From the UHGV virus genome UHGV-0135730: a DNA stretch of 54,321 bases; one strand, 5' to 3'. The notes below the pieces were generated by a model. The model worked only from the letters and a program-made list of their open reading frames with translations. It did not search any database and was not told where the DNA came from. Below are positions 2,138 through 42,413 of this stretch, one piece after another (position 1 is the first letter of the stretch; every line of letters begins with the position of its first letter). Origin of the DNA: a virus. A program made the position numbers and the translations under genes.

Positions 2138-2278
2138 TTATCCTTCTTTGCCTCCTTTGAACCCCAAACACTCCGCGTATTCGTCAATGCTTAATGCTTC
2201 TTCACCTGGTGCCAGCAATTCAAAGTAGCGGGCATATAACTCAAAAACCCATGCCGGATATTTAGCGTTAGCGCTCAT
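2138..2278 (-). CDS. Hypothetical small protein (46 aa)
   Basis: MSANAKYPAWVFELYARYFELLAPGEE...; GGAGG RBS; not in ORF track (short). Confidence 0.4.
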   Translation of the reverse strand: MSANAKYPAWVFELYARYFELLAPGEEALSIDEYAECLGFKGGKEG

Positions 2279-2311: not shown

Positions 2312-2355
2312 TATATAACAAAATGGCACTGTCGAAACAATGCCATTTCGTATAC
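2312..2355 (-). promoter_or_regulatory. Candidate sigma70 promoter with upstream TACGAAATGGC motif
   Basis: Minus strand GTATACGAAATGGC-A-TTGTTT-17-TATATA; palindromic arms AAATGGCA/TGCCATTT. Confidence 0.4.
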
Positions 2356-7211: not shown

Positions 7212-7291
7212 AATGCTCCCTCCTTTTCAGGTGATTTATACGCATTTCAGCGCTGCCGGATTTTTAAAGAGCATTTTGTTTGCTTGAAGTA

Positions 7292-7366
7292 TACAAAATG
7301 GATACATGCAAACAAGACAAAAAGCGCCATTATGTGATCCGCATCACGCAATGACGCCATTTTGTA
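7292..7366. promoter_or_regulatory. Intergenic regulatory region: divergent TACAAAATGG motifs flanking palindrome TGTGATCCGCATCACG
   Basis: TACAAAATGG at 7292-7301 (+) and 7357-7366 (-); TGTGA-N6-TCACG palindrome at 7333-7348. Confidence 0.45.
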
Positions 7367-7370
7367 AACT

Positions 7371-14743: not shown

Positions 14744-14997
14744 GCTTAACATCTTTCAACTAATCCCGCAATCATCGCCGTTCCCGGCGTGACCTTGCTC
14801 ACTCCAAGCAAGCTGACTCGTCGCCTTGCGTGCGGTTTCGTGGGGGATGTAACGCTTTAAACACCCCATGCGCCTTGTTATCAGTGCCGCTTTCGGTCCC
14901 CCATCGGGGAGTTACTCCACGGTTGACAAGGTGTTAAGCCTGATTTTTAAAGTGCCAGGAAGTTGCTTTTGTTGCCTGCTCCCTTCCTTTGATTCGC

Positions 14998-15040
14998 AAT
15001 ATACGCCCCGTAAAACACCGAGTCAATCCATTTTGTATAC
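14998..15040 (-). promoter_or_regulatory. Early leftward promoter (pL-like)
   Basis: Minus strand GTATACAAAATGG-A-TTGACT-17-TATATT. Confidence 0.6.
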
Positions 15041-15107
15041 TTTTTTAAAATATTTTATATACTATTGATATTTAAACAATAAATAGCGTTTTCTGTTTAC
15101 GTTTTGG

Positions 15108-22533: not shown

Positions 22534-22709
22534 TGGTTCGTTACTACATGGCTAAACCTACAGGCATTTTGTATAAGATTGATGGCGAATATGTTTATTA
22601 CTTTCACAATCAGGCGCGTGAGTGGCGATTATGTCACGCGCACTTTCAGCACGAAATAGAAAACCATCCTGAATATTTTATCAAAGTTGACAATGTAACG
22701 GTGGCGTAA
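22533..22709 (+). CDS. Hypothetical protein
   Basis: 58 aa ORF with overlapping stop-start. Confidence 0.35.
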   Translation: MVRYYMAKPTGILYKIDGEYVYYFHNQAREWRLCHAHFQHEIENHPEYFIKVDNVTVA

Positions 22710-28235: not shown

Positions 28236-28412
28236 CGCAATGACTCCATAATGTTAATTAACGGAATAATTCTACCATTTTGTGATCTGTGTTGCATTTT
28301 CTGCTTACACAAAATGTATTTGTTGATTTTTATCAATATACGAAATGTGGTTTTGTCGGATATTTAAGTCACCGGATGAACCGGACGAACCAACAAGAGC
28401 GAGGATTCAAAG

Positions 28413-28661
28413 ATGAAAAACGTATTCAAAGTGGTTTTGTTCGCTGCGGCTGTAGCTCTTACTGGTTGTGCTGTTGACAAAGAGGCTGCATTGCATAACC
28501 TGCCGAACAGCGGAGTGATTCCACAGGATGTTGTCTATGATGGTAGCGGTCATCTTGTCTATGACACTGAAAAGCTACCGTATACTGGGCAATGGTGTCA
28601 TGAACTCGATCACAACATGCGCCGCATCGGTAGCCCGTCAAACTGTGTAGCTAACTACTAA
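28413..28661 (+). CDS. Small lipoprotein (opposite-strand cargo between fibre genes)
   Basis: Signal peptide with lipobox LTGC (MKNVFKVVLFAAAVALTGCA); own terminator. Confidence 0.65.
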   Translation: MKNVFKVVLFAAAVALTGCAVDKEAALHNLPNSGVIPQDVVYDGSGHLVYDTEKLPYTGQWCHELDHNMRRIGSPSNCVANY

Positions 28662-28666
28662 AAGAA

Positions 28667-28694
28667 AACCCCGCGCGAAGCGGGGTTGTTTTTT
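28667..28694. terminator. Bidirectional rho-independent terminator
   Basis: Hairpin CCCCGC-GCGAA-GCGGGG flanked by A-run and T-run. Confidence 0.7.
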
Positions 28695-31600
28695 AACCTG
28701 AGAATGTACCAGAACCGCGCGACACAATGACAGTCGGCGAGTTTATATATGCCCCCTTACTATTTTGAGCGGATACACTAATTATCACTGTAACGCTCCT
28801 GTTAGCTACTGATGCTGCGTGCATAACAAGGCGCTCTTCGCCAGTCATAGAAAGTTGTTTCTGCGAACCGCTGATGTTTATCGTACATCCGCCGAAGCCC
28901 TTAACGTTTGCTATGACACAAACATGTCGGGCGTATGCTGCGTCTGTTGTATCGTAGTACTGAATTGTTTTTTGCAATACGCCATTTTGTAACCTGCTAA
29001 CGTCAGATCCCGTATACATGTTCGCAACGTCACCGATAAATGTCTTCGCTTCCAGTTGTCCTGAGAATTTACCGTTGGTTGCGTACACTGTACCGTTAAA
29101 CACCCCATCATTAGCGTATACCGTGCCCCTTATTGTTGCCTGGTTAAATACTGCTGCACCGTTTTTGTTTATCGCCCAGCCTGTACCGTTTTCCCAGCTG
29201 TAATTACTGGATTGTATTTGCTGAGCTATTTTTGCAGTAGTGATCGATGCGTCTTTAATAAACGCTTCTTTCACATACATTGCACCGTTAGACACATAGA
29301 ATGGCGTTGTATATGTGCCGTTTGCAGCCGTCATCAACACGAAGCGGTCAACAAGGAAGATACACTGCGATTGGACGTTAGTACCGTTGCCAGTCAGCCC
29401 AAGCGACATACCTGTCGCATACTTCATGCCGTTGTTGTCGGTTGCCAGCTTGATGGAATACGTCGCATCGACATTACCTTTGAAGTCGGTTAACGCTTTC
29501 GAAGTAGTCTGTATAGCTGTTGTGTTCCCGTTAACGGTCACTGTTAGCTGATCGATTTTGCTTGATAATGCCTCGTCAGCCGTTGCCATTGTCTGTGACC
29601 ATTCTGTAATACTTGAGTTTACAGAATCGAAAGACGCTGAGATCTGGCCGAATTTTTCCGCGCTTGATGCCTCATGCGTAGAAAGCGCCGTTGATACCTC
29701 AGACACCTTCGAGTTAATCGTACTGGTAAGCGATGAGTTAAGGTTACTTATCGCGTCAGTGCGTGCCTTCGTTTCGTCAGCGACGGCCTTGTCGAGACGG
29801 TTAACGTTGCTTGTCACTTTGCCATCAAGGGTTGAAATTGATGCGTTCACGCCAGTGATGGCTTGTGCTCTGGCGCTGGACTCGTCAGCAATCGCCTGGT
29901 CCAGTCTGCTAACCTCGGATTCAGTGTTGCTTTCGAGGGTGTTAATGCTCGCATTCACTCCACTGATAGCTTCTGTTCTTGCGCTGGTTTCGTTGGCAAT
30001 AGCCTGATCTAAACGTTTAACGCTGGCGTCGGTTTTCTTGTCGAGCGCTGAAATGCTTGCGTTAACGTTGCTCACCGCCTGGCTGCGTGCGTTGGTTTCG
30101 TCAGCGATAGCCTTATCGAGACGTGAAACGCTGGCATCGGTTTTCTTATCAAGATCCGTGATCGATGCTTTTACCACGCCGATTGCTTCGGCTGTAGCTT
30201 TTTTCTCTTCAGCGATAACACTGTCAATACGATCAATCTGCGCGCTTGTTTCCTTGCGACCTTTCTTGTACTGGGCCGTAAGCGTAACACGCGTGTTGGT
30301 TTGAGCGATTGAGTTGTTAATCAGAGCAATAGATGCGTTTTGCAGGCTTGCTTTGGTCTGGCTTATTTCGTCGCTGTTCTTGTCAACGTTATTTTCAACC
30401 TTGCCAAGCTCGGCGCTGATTCCAGATATAGCCTGAGCACGGGCGCTTGATTCGTCAGCAATAGCCTGGTCTAAGCGTTTTACGCTGGCGTTTGTGTTAC
30501 TTTCGAGCGTTGTTAAATCAGCTTTAACCTCTGTTATTGCGTCGCTTCTTGCCTGCGTTTCATCTGCTATTGCTTTATCGAGTCTGGAAACGCTGGCGTC
30601 TGTTTTGCTTTCAAGGTTGCTTATTGATGCTTTCACATCGCTCACAGCCTGGGCGCGGGCGCTGACCTCGTCAGCAATAGACTGGTCAAGGCGTTTAACT
30701 GCCGAATTGGTGTTACCTTCAAGCGTGTCAATACTTGCTTTGACACTACTGATAGCTTCAGTTCTTGCACTGGTTTCGTCTGCTATTGCTTGATCCAGGC
30801 GTTTAACGCTGGCGTCGGTTTTCTTGTCAAGCGCTGAAATGCTTGCGTTAACGTCACTGACTGCCTGTGTGCGGGCGTTCGTTTCGTCTGCAATAGCCTG
30901 ATCAAGTCTATTGACGCTGGCATCGGTTTTCTTGTCGAGATTGCTTATTGATGCGTTCACGCCGTTAATTGCTTCGGCGCGGGCACTGGTTTCGTCAGCT
31001 ACTGCGCGTTCCACGCTGGAGATCTGACCCTTGAGGTTGGAATCCATCGTGTTCATTTCTGCCGTGATGGTTTTCAGAGATTCAGCCGTGGCCTGTTTCT
31101 CATCAGCAATAACGTTGTCAATGCGGTCAATTTCAGCCTTCGTCTCTGTCCTGCCTTTCTTGTACTGTGCAGTGAGAGTAACCCGCGTGTTGGTCTGAGC
31201 AAGGGAGTTGTTGATAAGTGCCAACGACGCGTTTTGCAGGCTTGCTTTTGCTTGCGCCAGTTCACTGCCAACTTTTTCGCTGGATACCTCCAGAGAGTCT
31301 ATTCTTGCCTCATGCTGTCCAATATCGTCGGCGTTTTCCCCAACCTTTTTGTAAAGATCTTCCGTCTCTTTTTTCAGTGTGTCCGTGTCAGCTTTTATGG
31401 CCCCTGTTTCTGTGATTAGGCCGTCCGTATCAGTCCTCAATTCGTCAGTGATGTTTGTCAGGTTGTCAGTGTCAACCCTTAAATCGTCAGTGATGTTTGT
31501 CAGGTTATCAGTTGCAGTTTTGAGGCTGTCAGTAGCGTCTTTAAGGTCATTTGTAGCGCTTTCGATAAGGTCGGCGCGGTTGCCAAGATCTTCAATATCG

Positions 31601-37668: not shown

Positions 37669-37739
37669 GAGAAATTCATCACAAGAATTATAACCAGTTT
37701 ACAAAATGGCTTCACATAAGGCGTGACAAGATGTATATA
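37668..37739 (+). promoter_or_regulatory. CRP-like site plus TACAAAATGG-type promoter for cargo cassette
   Basis: TGAGAAATTCATCACA (37668-37683); GTTTACAAAATGGC then TTCACA-17-TATATA (37711-37739). Confidence 0.5.
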
Positions 37740-37779
37740 GTAAGCAAGAAGAAAAAGCAGTACCGACAAGGGGGGCAAT

Positions 37780-37935
37780 ATGGAACGCTATGTGGTTGTG
37801 ATGCTGAACAAAGCATTCGAACAGGTGGAAGTTGCGATTGTGAAGGGCTTTGATGATGCATTCAAATACGGTCAATTCATGATGAATGCAAAAGAAGATG
37901 AATACCGTGATTTCTTCCTGAAAGTGGTCAACTAA
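37780..37935 (+). CDS. Hypothetical small protein (cargo cassette)
   Basis: 51 aa ORF. Confidence 0.45.
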   Translation: MERYVVVMLNKAFEQVEVAIVKGFDDAFKYGQFMMNAKEDEYRDFFLKVVN

Positions 37936-37953
37936 TGGATTGCGGGGTGGGTT

Positions 37954-38208
37954 ATGAAATTGGTAATGATTGGTAAAAACCTGAAAGCACAGAAAAACGC
38001 ACAGGACCGGATCATCAAAAAGGGCAAGGCTTTATTAAATGCTTTCCTGAAAAAAGAGGCCAACCCCAAAAAATTACGCGATGGCTACGGTTATAAATTT
38101 GACATCAACCCCGATTGGCGGTTATTCAGCGAAGATTTAAAGATGTGGTTAATTATTGACCACCTGGAATATAACAGGCACTGTGGGGTGAAAGGTGCTC
38201 ACAAGTGA
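37954..38208 (+). CDS. Hypothetical basic protein (cargo cassette)
   Basis: 84 aa ORF. Confidence 0.5.
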   Translation: MKLVMIGKNLKAQKNAQDRIIKKGKALLNAFLKKEANPKKLRDGYGYKFDINPDWRLFSEDLKMWLIIDHLEYNRHCGVKGAHK

Positions 38209-38239
38209 CACGGATTTGAATGTTGCGGAGGAAAACAAA

Positions 38240-38410
38240 ATGAAAAATCCGGCAAATAAAAGCAACGTAAAACGCATAGCCTGGGTGCTAAAATATATGG
38301 ATAGTAAAGGGGATACATATACATGCCCATTTTTCAGGTATACTGACGCGGTATTTGCCAGAAGTGTACACGGAGGGAAAATTGAGAGAGGATATACAAG
38401 ATTTGAGTAA
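38240..38410 (+). CDS. Hypothetical small protein (cargo cassette)
   Basis: Start at MKNPANK with GGAGG RBS. Confidence 0.45.
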   Translation: MKNPANKSNVKRIAWVLKYMDSKGDTYTCPFFRYTDAVFARSVHGGKIERGYTRFE

Positions 38411-38448
38411 ATTTATTCACGAAATCAATAACATGACGAAGGTTAACA

Positions 38449-38628
38449 ATGGTTATTCATGAGACTGAAGAATGCAGAAGTATTAATCTTAGTATTGAAG
38501 ATGACGGGAGATTATGGATCGTTAGCGACTGCGAGATGATTGTAATAGACCAAAAGCAAGCTGACGAACTAATAAGAGCATTACAGCTTTATGCAAACGG
38601 CGAATTTAAAAATGATGAAATTGAATAA
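38449..38628 (+). CDS. Hypothetical small protein (cargo cassette)
   Basis: 59 aa ORF ending at terminator. Confidence 0.45.
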   Translation: MVIHETEECRSINLSIEDDGRLWIVSDCEMIVIDQKQADELIRALQLYANGEFKNDEIE

Positions 38629-38632
38629 AGAT

Positions 38633-38665
38633 AACCCCGGCATTGTACCGGGGTTTTGTTTATTT
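38633..38665. terminator. Bidirectional rho-independent terminator
   Basis: Hairpin CCCCGG-CATTGTA-CCGGGG followed by TTTTGTTTATTT. Confidence 0.7.
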
Positions 38666-41008
38666 CCTGCGAGGTTGCAACATTCCTCCGGGTCGTTGCG
38701 ATTCCCTTGCCATCATTTTCATCGCGACGCGTTCCATCGTCTGTTCAAGTCTGCGACTGTCTTCGTCGCTAAATCCGTTTGTGGTCTGTACGGTGATGTT
38801 AACAGGCATATTGATGCCGCCGCCGCTGAAGAGATCACGGCCAGGAATTACCCTACCATTCTCGCCAGGAATCATATACTGACGCCCGTTGCTCGTCTGG
38901 AATAGCTCTGGGATTCCGTGCTCACCTACGCGATACAGGCTGCCACCATTAACAGAACCACCATTATAACGCCCGCCACCAAAGATTGACGTTGCCAGCG
39001 ACATGATCGCAGAAAGCGCCGCAGCACCAGCCGCCGCCCAGCTACCACCAGTTGACGCCGCAGTCGCCGCCGCCGCTGGGGCCGCCGCCGCTGCAATCTG
39101 GCCTTGTGCCGCTACTGCGCCAGCCGTTGTACTTGCCTGGGTAGCCTTGCTTTGCGTTTCCATCATCAATTGATCTGCTATCCAGTTAGCGGCAATTTCT
39201 GACAGTTTGTTGCCAACGGTGTTAAGTATGCTACTTCCCAGGTTGGCGAAAACCTCGCTTAATGATTGAGTGCCGTTTAGCAGTCCGGTAAGGGCATTAC
39301 CCATGCCACCCTTCAGGCCGCTGACGCACGCACCAATCAGGCCGTTTGTTTCGCTTTGCGCCTGCCATTGTTCCCATTTCAGATCTCTGATCTGTTGTTC
39401 ATATTCCAATAGCGCCTGTTTCTGTTGCGCCTCTGTAGCGCCCAAGTCTATCAGCATTTGTTTGCGAACGGCCCATTCATTTTGTGCCTGCTTGATTGGG
39501 TCAATTTCTCCCTTAAGCTGGTCCATCGGGCTGACTATGTGATCCCATTTGTCGCGTAGCTCATCAACAGGGATTTGCGCCAATTCGTCCTTCAGTTCCT
39601 TGCCTATCCCTTTCTGCGCGGCCTTGTACTCAAGTAGGGTTATTTTGCCCTGGGCGAATGCAGCTTCAATGGCCTTGCCGTTCTCTAATGCTTTGCGCAT
39701 AGCGGCGGCGTCCTTGTTGTACTGGTCGGACACTTTTATGCCTTCATCACCAAGCCGATCAGCTTCAGATTTCTTGTCCTTTTTGCCCTTTTTCCCTTTT
39801 TTAGGCTTACCGACTGGCTGATCGAATCCGGTGATCTTGCCATCGTCAGCCTCATCCTGTTTCTGCATTAACTCATCATAGGCGGCGGTCGCGTTTTTAA
39901 TGTCGTTTGCAAACGTCATGACTTTGCCGACGGTGGGGCCAAATTTTTTCTCGTTGTTGCTGTTTAGCTCTTCCTTGCGTTTATCGACGATCTCCTTCAT
40001 CCACTTGTAACCATCCATTAGCGCTTTGATTGGCGTTACCATTTTGATGATTTCTTCCGCCACCTCACCAGCCTTAACAGCAACGTCGTCAAACATGTCG
40101 ATGAACTCGTTACCAGCGGTTTTAAGTGTGTTGAAACAGGTTGCGGCGAATTTTGCGCCTTTACCCAATCCCTCAACGCCACCAGTGATTAAGTCTATTG
40201 CTGTTACAACGCCGTCAGATATGCCGAAAAGATCATCAAGCTGTTCGACAAGTCCCATAACCTCAACTTTAAGCTCGTTGAAGGCCATGCCGGATGTGCG
40301 AGGCAACTGCGCAAACTTCTCGTTTGTTTCCTGCGTAGCGGCCTGGATCGCGTTAAGCATCCTTTCAGCCGTGATCTTGCCGTCCAGCATTTCAGCGCGG
40401 AACTGACCCATAGACAACCCCATTTGGCGGGCCATTTCCTGTATGATTGTTGGTGTGTTGTCACGTATTGAGTTAAATTCCTCAGCCTGCAACACGCCAG
40501 CATCAATAGCCTGGCGGAACTGAAGCATGGAGTTTGATAGTTGTTCCGCAGACACGCCGCCCAGGTTGCCGAGTTTTTGCAGCGTGCTAACCAGGTTGAG
40601 TACCTGGCCTTCTGTAGCGGATGTGTTTTTTAGCGATATAGCAAGACCTTGCCACAGGGCACCAGTATCCTTGAGGCTTTGGCCTGTTTCTTTTGATATA
40701 TCTTTCAGTCTGTTGAAAACACGTTCCGTGGCCTCCGCTTCACCTGTAAGCAGTTTGATTTTTACGCGAAGCATTTTCGCTTGCTCCGCCATGTCAATAA
40801 ACTGGCGTACAGCCTCCGCAGCAAGTAGCAAATGGATAACCCTGGATAGCGCTTTGATTGAAGTCTTAAGCGTGTTCACCTGGCGGTCAGCGCGTTTTGC
40901 GCCACGCTCGATGCTGTCAAAAGCCTGGTCTGCCTGTCGTTGAGCAACGAGAAGTTGACCAGTTTTTGCATCAACTTCGTAGTAAATTGTACCTAAACTA
41001 GTTGCCAT
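38660..41008 (-). CDS. Tail tape measure protein
   Basis: 782 aa, coiled-coil rich with Gly/Ala-rich segment; between chaperone and M. Confidence 0.85.
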   Translation of the reverse strand: MATSLGTIYYEVDAKTGQLLVAQRQADQAFDSIERGAKRADRQVNTLKTSIKALSRVIHLLLAAEAVRQFIDMAEQAKMLRVKIKLLTGEAEATERVFNRLKDISKETGQSLKDTGALWQGLAISLKNTSATEGQVLNLVSTLQKLGNLGGVSAEQLSNSMLQFRQAIDAGVLQAEEFNSIRDNTPTIIQEMARQMGLSMGQFRAEMLDGKITAERMLNAIQAATQETNEKFAQLPRTSGMAFNELKVEVMGLVEQLDDLFGISDGVVTAIDLITGGVEGLGKGAKFAATCFNTLKTAGNEFIDMFDDVAVKAGEVAEEIIKMVTPIKALMDGYKWMKEIVDKRKEELNSNNEKKFGPTVGKVMTFANDIKNATAAYDELMQKQDEADDGKITGFDQPVGKPKKGKKGKKDKKSEADRLGDEGIKVSDQYNKDAAAMRKALENGKAIEAAFAQGKITLLEYKAAQKGIGKELKDELAQIPVDELRDKWDHIVSPMDQLKGEIDPIKQAQNEWAVRKQMLIDLGATEAQQKQALLEYEQQIRDLKWEQWQAQSETNGLIGACVSGLKGGMGNALTGLLNGTQSLSEVFANLGSSILNTVGNKLSEIAANWIADQLMMETQSKATQASTTAGAVAAQGQIAAAAAPAAAATAASTGGSWAAAGAAALSAIMSLATSIFGGGRYNGGSVNGGSLYRVGEHGIPELFQTSNGRQYMIPGENGRVIPGRDLFSGGGINMPVNITVQTTNGFSDEDSRRLEQTMERVAMKMMARESQRPGGMLQPRRK

Positions 41009-41027
41009 GATTTAACCTCATGAAAAT

Positions 41028-41089
41028 TGTGATCTAGATCTCTATTCTATACAAAATGGCTTCAGTTCAACGAATACATTTTGTATAAA
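41028..41089 (+). promoter_or_regulatory. CRP-like site plus TACAAAATGG-type promoter for cargo cassette
   Basis: TGTGATCTAGATCTCT (41028-41043) centred about 60 bp upstream of predicted start; TATACAAAATGGC then TTCAGT-17-TATAAA. Confidence 0.5.
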
Positions 41090-41165
41090 GAAGATAAAAG
41101 AAAGGGATAGAGCGAAGGGACTTAAAAGGCCGGATTAACCGGAGGAAGCAAAAGAGGATAAGAAA

Positions 41166-41255
41166 ATGAAAAACGTAAACTACCACCCCAACGAGCATGA
41201 GCGTTATGCCGACTTCATCAAAGAAATGTTGAAAGCACTTAAAAACAAAAACTAA
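41166..41255 (+). CDS. Hypothetical small protein (29 aa)
   Basis: MKNVNYHPNEHERYADFIKEMLKALKNKN; precedes secreted-protein gene. Confidence 0.35.
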   Translation: MKNVNYHPNEHERYADFIKEMLKALKNKN

Positions 41256-41267
41256 GCGGGGTGAGTT

Positions 41268-41684
41268 ATGAAACGGTTAATTAGAGCGGCAATGATGGCG
41301 GTAATGGTTGGTTTGGCATTCAACGCAAATGCAAACGATGTAATAAATATAAACTGCGATGAAGTAGCAAATAACGTTGCCGAATACCATAAAATTTTCA
41401 AGAAGGAACCCGCAGCCATCAAGGTTTTTTATAAAGCAATTGACAAGCATTTCGAAGGTAAACCAGTTTATGCAAGATGGTTTAATTATGGGCTTGTGAA
41501 GGAGGCTGCTGTAGGTGTCGTATTCGAAGGTAACAATGAAATAAGAAACAGAATAGCCAACGAGTGCAACGCTGATAAAGCCGCATTTGCTGAAAGAATA
41601 TTTAACGAAGGCGGCGCGGGTGTTAAAAATCATGCTATCGTTGATTTAGGTAACGGCAGAATTGAAATTGTAAGGATCAGATAA
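41268..41684 (+). CDS. Secreted protein of unknown function (cargo)
   Basis: Cleavable signal peptide MKRLIRAAMMAVMVGLAFNANA; own promoter and terminator on opposite strand. Confidence 0.6.
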   Translation: MKRLIRAAMMAVMVGLAFNANANDVININCDEVANNVAEYHKIFKKEPAAIKVFYKAIDKHFEGKPVYARWFNYGLVKEAAVGVVFEGNNEIRNRIANECNADKAAFAERIFNEGGAGVKNHAIVDLGNGRIEIVRIR

Positions 41685-41708
41685 TGAGCACTATCAAAAA
41701 GCATCATC

Positions 41709-41733
41709 GACATATAACGCCCGGTTCTACCGG
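41709..41733 (+). terminator. Rho-independent terminator after secreted-protein gene
   Basis: Hairpin GCCCGG-TTCTA-CCGGGC followed by TTTTTCTT. Confidence 0.7.
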
Positions 41734-42413
41734 GCTTTTTCTTGCTCGCGTTTTTTCATCAATTCCAGCACCCTTTTAGCCGCTCCCATTTGCTCATCAT
41801 AATCACGTTTATTTATATGAACGTTTGGTTTACCTTTCTCGTTTCTTTCGTCTGGCGGCGTTTTAGCGCGTACAGCGGCCCTATATCCGGTCATTGTCAT
41901 GCCCCACGCTTCAGATTCAGACAATCCCAAGTGAGCAACGGCGGAGTAAACATACTCAAGGATGTCGAATGTTGGCTTGTACTCACCTTCCTGGTTTGTG
42001 ACCGTGTCTTCTTCTGGACCGTCACCAATTAAACCGTGATACATACAGTGTTGCGCCAGCGTGATAACGTCGCTGGTGGGCATCAATCCCGGTTTCATTC
42101 TCAACTTACCCGAAGGAGTAAAGCTGCATTCGCCCAATAACGGGCCTATTTCGCATTCTGAGCAACATTTCAGTACGTGGATGGACGTTTGCACCAGTTC
42201 ACCATAACAACGCGCCAGAATGCGATTGCGGAGGTCTGAATCAGTTGGCAAACGTTGTGGGTATCTGCCACCGTGCACCGTTGCGAAGTATTCTACCAGC
42301 TCCCTGTCGCTGCCGATCTTAGCCATTGCAGCAAAGCAGGGATTGAACTCGTAACGTCTGCCATCAACCACAACCGCAAATTGTCCTGTTCGAACATGGA
42401 TCATAACTGTCAC
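41727..42413 (-). CDS. Tail assembly chaperone-like protein
   Basis: Position between major tail and tape measure; basic C-terminus; no frameshift site identified. Confidence 0.4.
   Translation of the reverse strand: MTVMIHVRTGQFAVVVDGRRYEFNPCFAAMAKIGSDRELVEYFATVHGGRYPQRLPTDSDLRNRILARCYGELVQTSIHVLKCCSECEIGPLLGECSFTPSGKLRMKPGLMPTSDVITLAQHCMYHGLIGDGPEEDTVTNQEGEYKPTFDILEYVYSAVAHLGLSESEAWGMTMTGYRAAVRAKTPPDERNEKGKPNVHINKRDYDEQMGAAKRVLELMKKREQEKAR

Follow-up and report, generated by a model that had tools for sequence, protein, structure and literature searches.

A probable antisense moron operon in the tail region of an mEp021-type Escherichia coli phage encodes a predicted Sec-exported protein in a slot of apparently exchangeable cargo genes

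The virus genome UHGV-0135730, a stretch of DNA of 54,321 nucleotides (nt) that is called the window here in its full length, belongs to a member of the mEp021 group of Escherichia coli temperate siphophages and carries, within its tail operon, a pair of small genes encoded against the direction of their surroundings. The larger of the two, an open reading frame (ORF) of 138 amino acids (aa) that starts with ATG at 41268..41684 of the + strand, is referred to as the cargo gene, and a mini-ORF of 29 aa lies directly 5' of it on the same strand (41166..41255). Both are antisense between the tape-measure gene and a DUF6246 gene, which are − strand genes. A first-pass annotation made from the sequence alone had described a 138-aa ORF with this N-terminus, a 29-aa ORF that precedes it and an orientation antisense to the tail operon, and all of these are indeed found. 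The stretch 41028-41741 very probably has the anatomy of a moron, i.e., an antisense operon composed of an upstream module, the 29-aa gene, the gene of the 138-aa secreted protein and a terminator. The best explanation of the locus as a whole, which is put forward tentatively, combines this moron with export of its product and protection of the lysogen at the envelope, likeliest by superinfection exclusion. Morons with envelope cargo are a well-known kind of element; the focal protein family itself is uncharacterised, confined to one lineage and without fold relative.

The cargo gene is a real gene under ordinary purifying selection, and neither a chance ORF nor a decaying one. Over seven distinct alleles its synonymous polymorphism (pS) is 0.51 and its ratio of nonsynonymous to synonymous polymorphism (pN/pS) 0.23, with values of 0.31 for the signal peptide and 0.21 for the mature part; for comparison, the neighbouring DUF6246 gene and the N-terminus of the tape-measure gene give 0.17 and 0.14, respectively. 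Among 16 homologs, 61 residues of the protein are invariant, including Cys30, Cys100 and an FEGKP loop. The distribution of the family is narrow. A word-indexed search of 5.8 billion proteins returned 17 clusters, every one of them from E. coli and with an identity of 71% or more, and an exhaustive hidden Markov model profile search of 1.84 billion cluster representatives returned the focal family itself and three repeat proteins only. Homologs in the phage collection are confined to the mEp021-type lineage, and the plasmid collection contained none (0 homologs). In the 12 contigs sampled, which represent two different alleles, the gene always occupies the same slot (12/12), and the family is found intact in hundreds of contigs. 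Orthologs of the protein are mEp021 gp63 and mEp010 gp97, both of which are annotated as 'hypothetical protein'.

The N-terminus of the cargo protein (MKRLIRAAMMAVMVGLAFNANA, residues 1-22, encoded by 41268..41333 on the + strand) fits a Sec signal of the signal peptidase I (SPase I) type with predicted cleavage after Ala22. It is laid out as an n-region with a charge of +3 (MKRLIR), an h-region of 12 residues (AAMMAVMVGLAF) and the stretch N-A-N-A, with the cut before N. The hydropathy maximum of the whole protein lies at residues 8-18 (Kyte-Doolittle, KD(11) 2.34), A-N-A occupies positions -3 to -1, and residues 1-29 contain neither a Cys nor a lipobox. The motif A17-F18-N19-A20-x-A22 is invariant in the 16 homologs, and the signal peptide is common to two further protein families of the same slot, B and C, which are described below. 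The cleavable Sec signal peptide proposed in the first-pass annotation thus matches the SPase I type in its n-region, h-region, A-x-A motif and lack of a lipobox, and export of the 138-aa precursor is predicted with good confidence. In two alleles (P0011 and P0012) the Asn-Ala repeat at the cleavage site is expanded from NANA to NANANA or NANANANA (equivalent to 41322-41336), which suggests slippage in the AAC/AAT-GCA repeat.

The mature domain, encoded together with the stop codon by 41334..41684 (+ strand), comprises 116 aa (13.0 kDa, pI ~8) and is hydrophilic. The first-pass annotation had called for a structure prediction with fold search and had seen no recognisable domain. An AlphaFold2 model built from the 16-sequence alignment is compact (predicted local distance difference test, pLDDT, 78.5; predicted template-modelling score, pTM, 0.74) and consists of five helices (30-46, 50-61, 67-86, 89-102 and 104-115) and a C-terminal beta-hairpin (122-136), and Foldseek searches with this model found no fold relative in PDB (best E 0.75) or BFVD (best E 0.12). 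Pfam, PHROGs, NCBIfam and PADLOC returned no match for the 138-aa protein, in agreement with the profile search, which yielded only its own family and repeat proteins. When Pfam was searched at E up to 1, the sole match was a spurious one to DUF3836, and YebO was not among the results. Neither PF11319 nor TIGR03360 (VasI/TagO) matches the protein, and no similarity to a binding protein, chaperone or virulence factor was found. Because two Cys residues are invariant in a protein predicted to be exported, Cys30 and Cys100 probably form a disulfide in the periplasm.

The repeat proteins returned by the profile search are a reason for caution with such matches. Two of them, P0018 and P0019, are very long eukaryote-like EF-hand arrays (2847 aa and 1404 aa, respectively) that reach E-values down to 5e-19 against the small helical profile purely via repeat summation. 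Homology of the cargo protein to EF-hands was considered and rejected: the scores are sums over up to 14 repeats, hhalign assigns one unit alone a probability of 9.8%, and there is no Pfam EF-hand match nor any match to a solved EF-hand protein. Measured against the canonical 12-residue loop (D-x-[DNS]-x-[DNS]-G-x-[ILV]-x-x-x-E), the loop D59-K-H-F-E-G-K-P-V-Y-A-R70 has no ligands at positions 3, 8 and 12. An explanation by the tail assembly inhibition (Tai) systems, which are cytoplasmic and lie mainly upstream of the packaging module, was rejected.

What lies between the tape-measure and DUF6246 genes differs between relatives that are ~90% identical in the flanks, in which a different cargo is present or the focal cargo is absent. 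A scan of IMG/VR with the invariant inverted repeat of the upstream module produced 43 further contigs of the same lineage, and the repertoire of the slot was counted over 58 loci. The mini-ORF (27-29 aa) is the most widespread occupant (45/58 loci). The focal family, designated family A (137-138 aa, secreted), is intact in 25/58 loci, followed by a transmembrane protein of 33-35 aa (TM35; 18/58), a lipoprotein of 203-219 aa that belongs to the VasI/TagO family (14/58), a transmembrane protein of 100-107 aa (TM100; 13/58), a 124-aa lipoprotein (11/58), the secreted family B of 116-119 aa (8/58), a 106-aa non-secreted protein (4/58), the secreted family C of 165 aa (2/58) and a 74-aa non-secreted protein (1/58). 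If the mini-ORF and a probably spurious ORF of 30-32 aa are left out of the count, about nine alternative cargo families use the slot. They occur in combinations, such as mini-ORF and A (16 loci), mini-ORF, TM35 and TM100 (8 loci), VasI and the 124-aa lipoprotein (8 loci), mini-ORF, A and TM35 (6 loci) and mini-ORF and B (4 loci), besides others. Apart from the two rare non-secreted families, the sister cargoes are targeted to the envelope as secreted proteins, lipoproteins or small transmembrane proteins. The VasI/TagO-type lipoprotein was recognised by PF11319 with 57.6 bits (cut-off 26.5), a family whose function is not known (PMC13584744). None of the sister cargoes has a functional PHROG annotation, and PADLOC gave zero matches for the cargo protein and five sister cargoes.

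The three secreted families show how far the exchange reaches into the coding sequence. Families A, B and C align over the signal peptide only (residues 1-25 or 1-33), and no homology among them was found beyond it. Compared at the nucleotide level with the locus of strain 127, which has a B-type cargo, the window retains an identity of at least 90% through the leader and the signal codons to ~41320, after which identity collapses; with most relatives it resumes at the terminator. The signal codons are therefore part of the conserved 5' flank for cassette exchange, and the mature domain would be the part that is exchanged. Read in this way, the slot is a cassette-exchange hotspot in which recombination between conserved flanks appears to swap unrelated mature domains, and recombination at the modules of the focal locus itself is inferred from these breakpoints. 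Base composition also sets the locus apart: GC content is 0.38 at 41000-41600 compared with 0.48-0.52 in the flanks, and GC skew and AT skew both reverse, as is usual for a moron. The word 'cargo', which the first-pass annotation had used for the gene, is thus appropriate in a literal sense, the gene being swappable and its composition of the moron type.

Conservation of the region upstream of the operon was read from 16 aligned loci, in which the best-conserved block is 41028-41089. Where the mini-ORF is missing, the cargo gene begins at a distance of ~128 nt from the tape-measure start, with this block as the sole conserved upstream sequence; any promoter must therefore lie there. The block begins with the element TGTGATCTAGATCTCT (41028..41043, + strand), whose TGTGAT is invariant. 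With 18 of 22 positions of the textbook CRP consensus in the window, this element resembles a CRP site in our own reading of the window sequence; the right half-site is not conserved in relatives. Within the same element, and in the UHGV window only, there is a 10-bp palindrome, GATCTAGATC, at 41031-41040 with two Dam sites, at which relatives differ. An 11-bp perfect inverted repeat follows, the left arm of which is the box TATACAAAATG (41048..41058, + strand), invariant in 16/16 loci and ending 2 nt 5' of a -35-like hexamer, and the right arm of which is CATTTTGTATA (41077..41087, entered on the − strand among the copies of the box), overlapping a -10-like hexamer. The two hexamers, TTCAGT (41061-66) and TATAAA (41084-89), are separated by a 17-nt spacer and make up a candidate sigma-70 promoter (41061..41089, + strand); the first reads TTCACT in most relatives. 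A simple sigma-70 consensus scan reported no + strand promoter, TTCAGT-17-TATAAA being below its threshold. The promoter of its own that the first-pass annotation had attributed to the gene stands, therefore, as a conserved candidate -35/-10 pair in the only block present in all loci, without recognition by the consensus scan.

Downstream of the promoter block the leader contains a hairpin, CCGG-ATTAA-CCGG (41130..41142, + strand), of which the stem is kept and the loop varies among loci. A search of Rfam with 40900-41800 at E up to 1 identified no RNA family. In one locus of the set (L007, E. coli UMNK88) and in seven IMG/VR loci a purine-rich insertion of 92 nt separates the promoter block from the CCGG hairpin; the arginine-rich ORF of 30-32 aa that it creates in these eight loci is probably spurious. 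At the other end of the operon, the terminator that the first-pass annotation had claimed is present as GCCCGGTTCTACCGGGC followed by TTTTTC (41719..41741, + strand), overlapping the 3' end of the convergent DUF6246 gene. Its hairpin (41719-41735) has a 7-bp stem with six G-C pairs and is followed by TTTTTCTT on the + strand only; since the − strand has no T-run, late tail transcription should not stop there. Terminators are annotated at the equivalent position in mEp021 and mEp010.

The mini-ORF, which the first-pass annotation had placed before the cargo gene without recognising it as a selected coding sequence, is a genuine protein-coding gene under selection, not just a leader, and the first gene of the moron operon. 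This is indicated by its low pN/pS (0.115 at a pS of 0.52, 13 loci), the concentration of variable columns at third codon positions (8/5/19 for the three positions), an indel of 3 nt that stays in frame and the presence of a ribosome-binding site (RBS), GAGGA, at 41154-41158; pN/pS exceeds 1.1 in the other two frames. The product, MKNVNYHPNEHERYADFIKEMLKALKNKN, is a hydrophilic, basic protein of 29 aa that is restricted to the mEp021-type lineage. It is dispensable, as the 13 of 58 loci without a mini-ORF demonstrate. On the other side of the cargo gene the window retains the frameshifted remains of the TM35 gene (41684..41713, + strand, 30 nt), a gene that in other loci, for example L014 and L023, is intact 3' of family A and joined to it by a TAATG overlap.

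The surroundings of the operon are those of a siphophage tail module. The tape-measure gene (38660..41008, − strand) is recognised by PF20155 with 166.7 bits and corresponds to phrog_1538, and the DUF6246 gene (41727..42413, − strand) by PF19759 with 190.5 bits. The latter comes after the tail-tube gene and hence occupies the position of the tail-assembly chaperone, in which it forms a single ORF. An extension by a lambda-type G/GT frameshift into the cassette region seems unlikely because, on its own strand, the gene is followed by ~720 nt of sequence antisense to a swappable cassette. Before the tape-measure gene, the late tail transcript has to include a long untranslated spacer. Identity of the locus is ~91% with mEp010 and mEp021 and 95.7% with a prophage of strain WCHEC025970. 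The mEp021 group, known as 'mEpimmI' phages, is Nus-dependent and non-lambdoid (PMC11893012), and the lineage is frequent in E. coli of gut and clinical origin (PMC11893012); neither gp62-gp64 by name nor the two orthologs of the cargo protein are discussed in the mEpimmI paper (PMC11893012).

Several known systems resemble the operon, each in a different respect. Gene 15 of phage HK97, the archetype of the moron, belongs to a siphophage tail operon and occupies the same slot, from the tail chaperone position to the tape-measure gene. It has its own transcription signals, to which a terminator and a candidate promoter correspond in the focal operon; its product goes to the envelope, as is predicted for the focal one, and both occur patchily in relatives (PMC3594210). 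Its product blocks genome injection in a manner dependent on the phage tail (PMC3594210). In contrast, gp15 is a small YebO-related inner-membrane protein, while the focal protein is predicted to be a soluble, Sec-exported helical protein of 13 kDa, and exclusion has been demonstrated experimentally for gp15 and is a candidate function, by analogy, for the focal protein. The focal moron is antisense and consists of two genes, with a mini-protein in the leader position.

A second parallel is found in the window itself. An island at 28271-28695 (+ strand), between a 1043-aa tail-fibre gene and a 1794-aa J-like gene, contains at 28413..28661 (+ strand) the gene of an 82-aa lipoprotein that is 100% identical to mEp010 gp116, i.e., Lpp010, with its own terminator (~28667-28695) and with a TGTGATC and box module upstream. 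As the focal operon, Lpp010/Lpp021 is an antisense moron of the tail region with its own terminator and a product exported to the envelope, and the leaders are alike in their TGTGATC and ACAAAATG-box module, hairpin, RBS and first codons (MKNV). The focal leader (41129-41177, 49 nt), which comprises the CCGG hairpin, the RBS and ATG AAA AAC GTA, shares homology with the leader and first four codons of the Lpp010 gene; its local alignment with 28371-28424 scores 45 compared with a shuffle mean of 17.7 (sd 2.4), a value reached in 0/500 shuffles. Lpp010 has a lipobox (LTGC) and a demonstrated exclusion function (PMC11893012), whereas the focal protein has no lipobox and is unrelated in sequence. 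When cloned as pLpp010, Lpp010 excludes mEp010, mEp044, mEp554 and lambda (PMC11893012). In function Lpp010/Lpp021 resembles Cor and T5 Llp.

A third likeness concerns the organisation of the cassettes. The PeSL cassettes of T4-type phages consist of a short promoter and stem-loop module that is repeated and flanks variable ORFs, and, like the focal module, it provides potential homology for modular shuffling (PMC2839356, PMC4122927). The focal elements differ from PeSL in their motif, in belonging to a temperate siphophage, in being antisense cassettes within late operons and in having a conserved flank that reaches into coding sequence. Finally, lambda has the bor and lom morons, accessory genes in or near the late region whose envelope products are made from the prophage (PMC3594210). 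With Bor a lipoprotein and Lom an outer-membrane beta-barrel, both are unlike the focal protein, which is predicted to be soluble, periplasmic and helical and shows no homology to either.

The mechanism that is proposed on this basis would start with transcription of the operon by host RNA polymerase in the lysogen, an expression pattern that is slightly favoured by analogy; during lytic growth, antisense late tail transcription would silence the moron. The 138-aa precursor would be exported by Sec, cut after Ala22 and folded in the periplasm into a compact, mostly helical protein of 13 kDa, which would protect the lysogen at the envelope. The likeliest mechanism would be superinfection exclusion in the periplasmic phase of DNA injection: the protein might bind the tape-measure or tail-tip complex of the incoming phage, or else a host factor of the periplasm or inner membrane on which this complex depends. 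Injection includes a periplasmic step (PMID 25532427, from 2015, cited in PMC11364771) at which a soluble factor could interfere. Such an exclusion function, taken by itself, is possible if doubtful. It is ranked first because HK97 gp15 shares the slot and because the Lpp010 gene in the same genome shares the leader, and the sister cargoes in the 58 loci are nearly all envelope proteins. By analogy, the role of a lysogenic-conversion or periplasmic protective factor, as suggested by the first-pass annotation, would fit all the circumstantial evidence. Several points weigh against the explanation as a whole. Cor and Llp are membrane-anchored proteins or lipoproteins. The cargo protein has no sequence or fold likeness to any known exclusion, immunity or defence protein, and its gene shows purifying selection without sign of diversification or of an obvious arms race. 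With Lpp010 the phage already has an exclusion lipoprotein that is validated. Regulatory modules of the same type also head non-envelope genes, the copy at 2344(-) lying 5' of cytoplasmic-looking ORFs. The candidate promoter has a weak -35 (3/6) and falls below the consensus scan, and the inverted repeat over its -10 could be an operator that shuts the promoter in lysogens. Moreover, HK97 gp15, P22 SieA and Lpp010, the exclusion proteins to which it is compared, are membrane-anchored proteins or lipoproteins and not soluble periplasmic ones (PMC3594210, PMC11436027).

Of the other functions, periplasmic immunity comes next in the ranking, ahead of a fitness factor of the Bor/Lom type, a lytic accessory and, last, no function. 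In the immunity explanation, which appears rather unlikely, the prophage would provide its host with an orphan immunity gene, whose periplasmic product neutralises a toxin aimed at the envelope. Candidate toxins are the type VI effectors of competitors (amidase, muramidase or lipase), their colicins or pesticin-like bacteriocins, and host lysozyme. The small size of the soluble, predicted periplasmic protein and its two invariant Cys would suit such a role. Several immunity proteins of type VI secretion system (T6SS) amidases are small helical periplasmic proteins. The diversity of the cassettes would also suit an immunity repertoire, and the only hint of a connection is the VasI/TagO-family lipoprotein, associated with type VI secretion, that occurs as a sister cassette in the slot. 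A host-fitness or interaction factor comparable to lambda Bor and Lom, acting on envelope physiology and not in defence against phages or toxins, would benefit the lysogen in the gut through, e.g., stress tolerance, serum or bile resistance, adhesion or nutrient binding. Moron architecture and predicted export agree with this, as do the abundance of the lineage in gut and clinical E. coli (PMC11893012) and the diverse lysogenic-conversion roles known among morons (PMC3594210). However, a fitness factor is unlikely: no binding protein, chaperone or virulence factor was found to resemble the protein, and the gene is strictly tied to a tail slot and has a leader in common with an exclusion gene, both of which favour a phage-related function.

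The operator-like arrangement of the 11-bp inverted repeat, which straddles the -35/-10 region, is what speaks for a lytic-cycle accessory, i.e., an operon shut in the lysogen via this repeat and switched on early after infection or induction, whose product might serve the phage itself, e.g., block late superinfection, modulate the timing of lysis or protect the cell wall until lysis. The same box occurs at the strong promoter at 15029(-) beside the repressor gene and is over-represented genome-wide, as expected of the site of a phage regulator. Nevertheless, convergent late tail transcription would interfere with the operon in lytic growth, the palindromes of the PR region (CTTGCA-N4-TGCAAG) are unlike the box, and the cargo is absent or replaced in viable relatives that include the plaque-forming mEp013, mEp044, mEp515 and mEp554, so that a lytic role seems quite improbable. 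The idea of a decaying or functionless ORF that rides with the cassette could appeal to the orphan character and narrow distribution of the family and to the decay of the neighbouring partner gene in the window. Against it stand the mature-part pN/pS of 0.21 (pS ~0.5), the 61 invariant residues with both Cys, the intact copies in 25/58 loci and the confident, compact AlphaFold2 model, which leave it hardly any probability. A more far-reaching proposal, to be regarded as speculative and improbable, is that of a dedicated 'export slot', in which a fixed regulatory cassette with copies throughout the genome (TGTGATC element, ACAAAATG box, promoter, CCGG hairpin, RBS and first codons) and a shared signal peptide would serve the antisense islands as common control unit and as recombination handle for placing unrelated mature domains behind one export signal. 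One factor that binds the box would then govern a moron regulon, with the 29-aa protein as a novel regulator or partner of small size. The 138-aa protein, for its part, would have a new fold and be the first exclusion factor that is soluble and periplasmic.

Morons of prophages are a main route by which temperate phages alter the surface and defences of gut E. coli, and for most of their products no function is known. The present locus is experimentally tractable, since the group includes the cultured K-12 phages mEp021 and mEp010 and an exclusion assay has been published for Lpp010, and the slot offers a natural allelic series that includes three soluble secreted families with one signal peptide. 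If periplasmic exclusion were true, it would add a soluble protein with a new fold to a class dominated by membrane proteins and lipoproteins, and would make it easier to study how siphophage DNA is injected at the level of the periplasm, a stage that is poorly understood. The repeated ACAAAATG-box module, in turn, could explain both the co-regulation and the shuffling of several antisense islands in one phage.

The box is indeed a repeated element of the window. With up to one mismatch the 11-mer TATACAAAATG occurs in 15 copies compared with 1.65 expected and at most 6 in 100 shuffles, its 8-mer core ACAAAATG in 23 copies compared with 4.0 expected, and the composite TGTGATC-N(8-30)-TAYACRAAATG three times compared with 0 in 100 shuffles. 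Examples of copies are 2344-2354(-), 7290-7300(+), 7358-7368(-), 15029-15039(-), 22565-22575(-), 28306-28316(+), 28337-28347(+), 37698-37708(+), 41048-41058(+) and 41077-41087(-). The box often stands 2 nt 5' of a -35-like hexamer or in inverted pairs, and at 15029(-), 37698(+) and 41048(+) the geometry is identical: box, 2 nt, -35-like hexamer, 17 nt and -10-like hexamer. These features suggest that the ACAAAATG box may be a phage-wide regulatory element, be it of the UP-like kind, an activator site or an operator. The position of the box (-48 to -38) and the A-tract that it contains presumably fit a proximal UP subsite, and the inverted copy over the -10 looks more operator-like. A role as operator of a CI-type repressor was considered and is not supported, the PR-region palindromes being different in our own reading. 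The copy at 15029(-) lies directly 5', together with an A/T-rich tract, of a strong sigma-70 promoter, TTGACT-17-TATATT (14990-15045, − strand), just past the terminator of the repressor gene; this is probably the leftward early promoter, with a leader of ~330 nt.

Three accessory islands of the + strand lie within the − strand tail operon, and all of them are headed by the box. Besides the focal operon and the Lpp010 island, the third is found at 37698-38655 (+ strand), flanked by a minor-tail gene on one side and by the tape-measure 3' end on the other, with the promoter TTTACAAAATG-GC-TTCACA-17-TATATA, three ORFs of 51, 84 and 59 aa (37780-38628, + strand) and a terminator (38633-38655). 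Its 84-aa ORF matches, in position and length, a PF24732 ParE_like protein of relatives. A further copy of the promoter module, with TGTGATC, the box, the inverted arm and TATATA at 2300-2384, belongs to the − strand region 1448-2384, where it heads an ORF of 46 aa (2138..2278), behind which lie two ORFs without signal peptides (99 aa and 107 aa). The local alignment of the focal promoter block with the module at 2344(-) scores 30 compared with a shuffle mean of 16.9 (sd 2.4) and is matched in 0/500 shuffles. By eye, the 46-aa protein and the 29-aa mini-protein seem to have a stretch E-x-Y-A-x-[FY]-[IF] in common.

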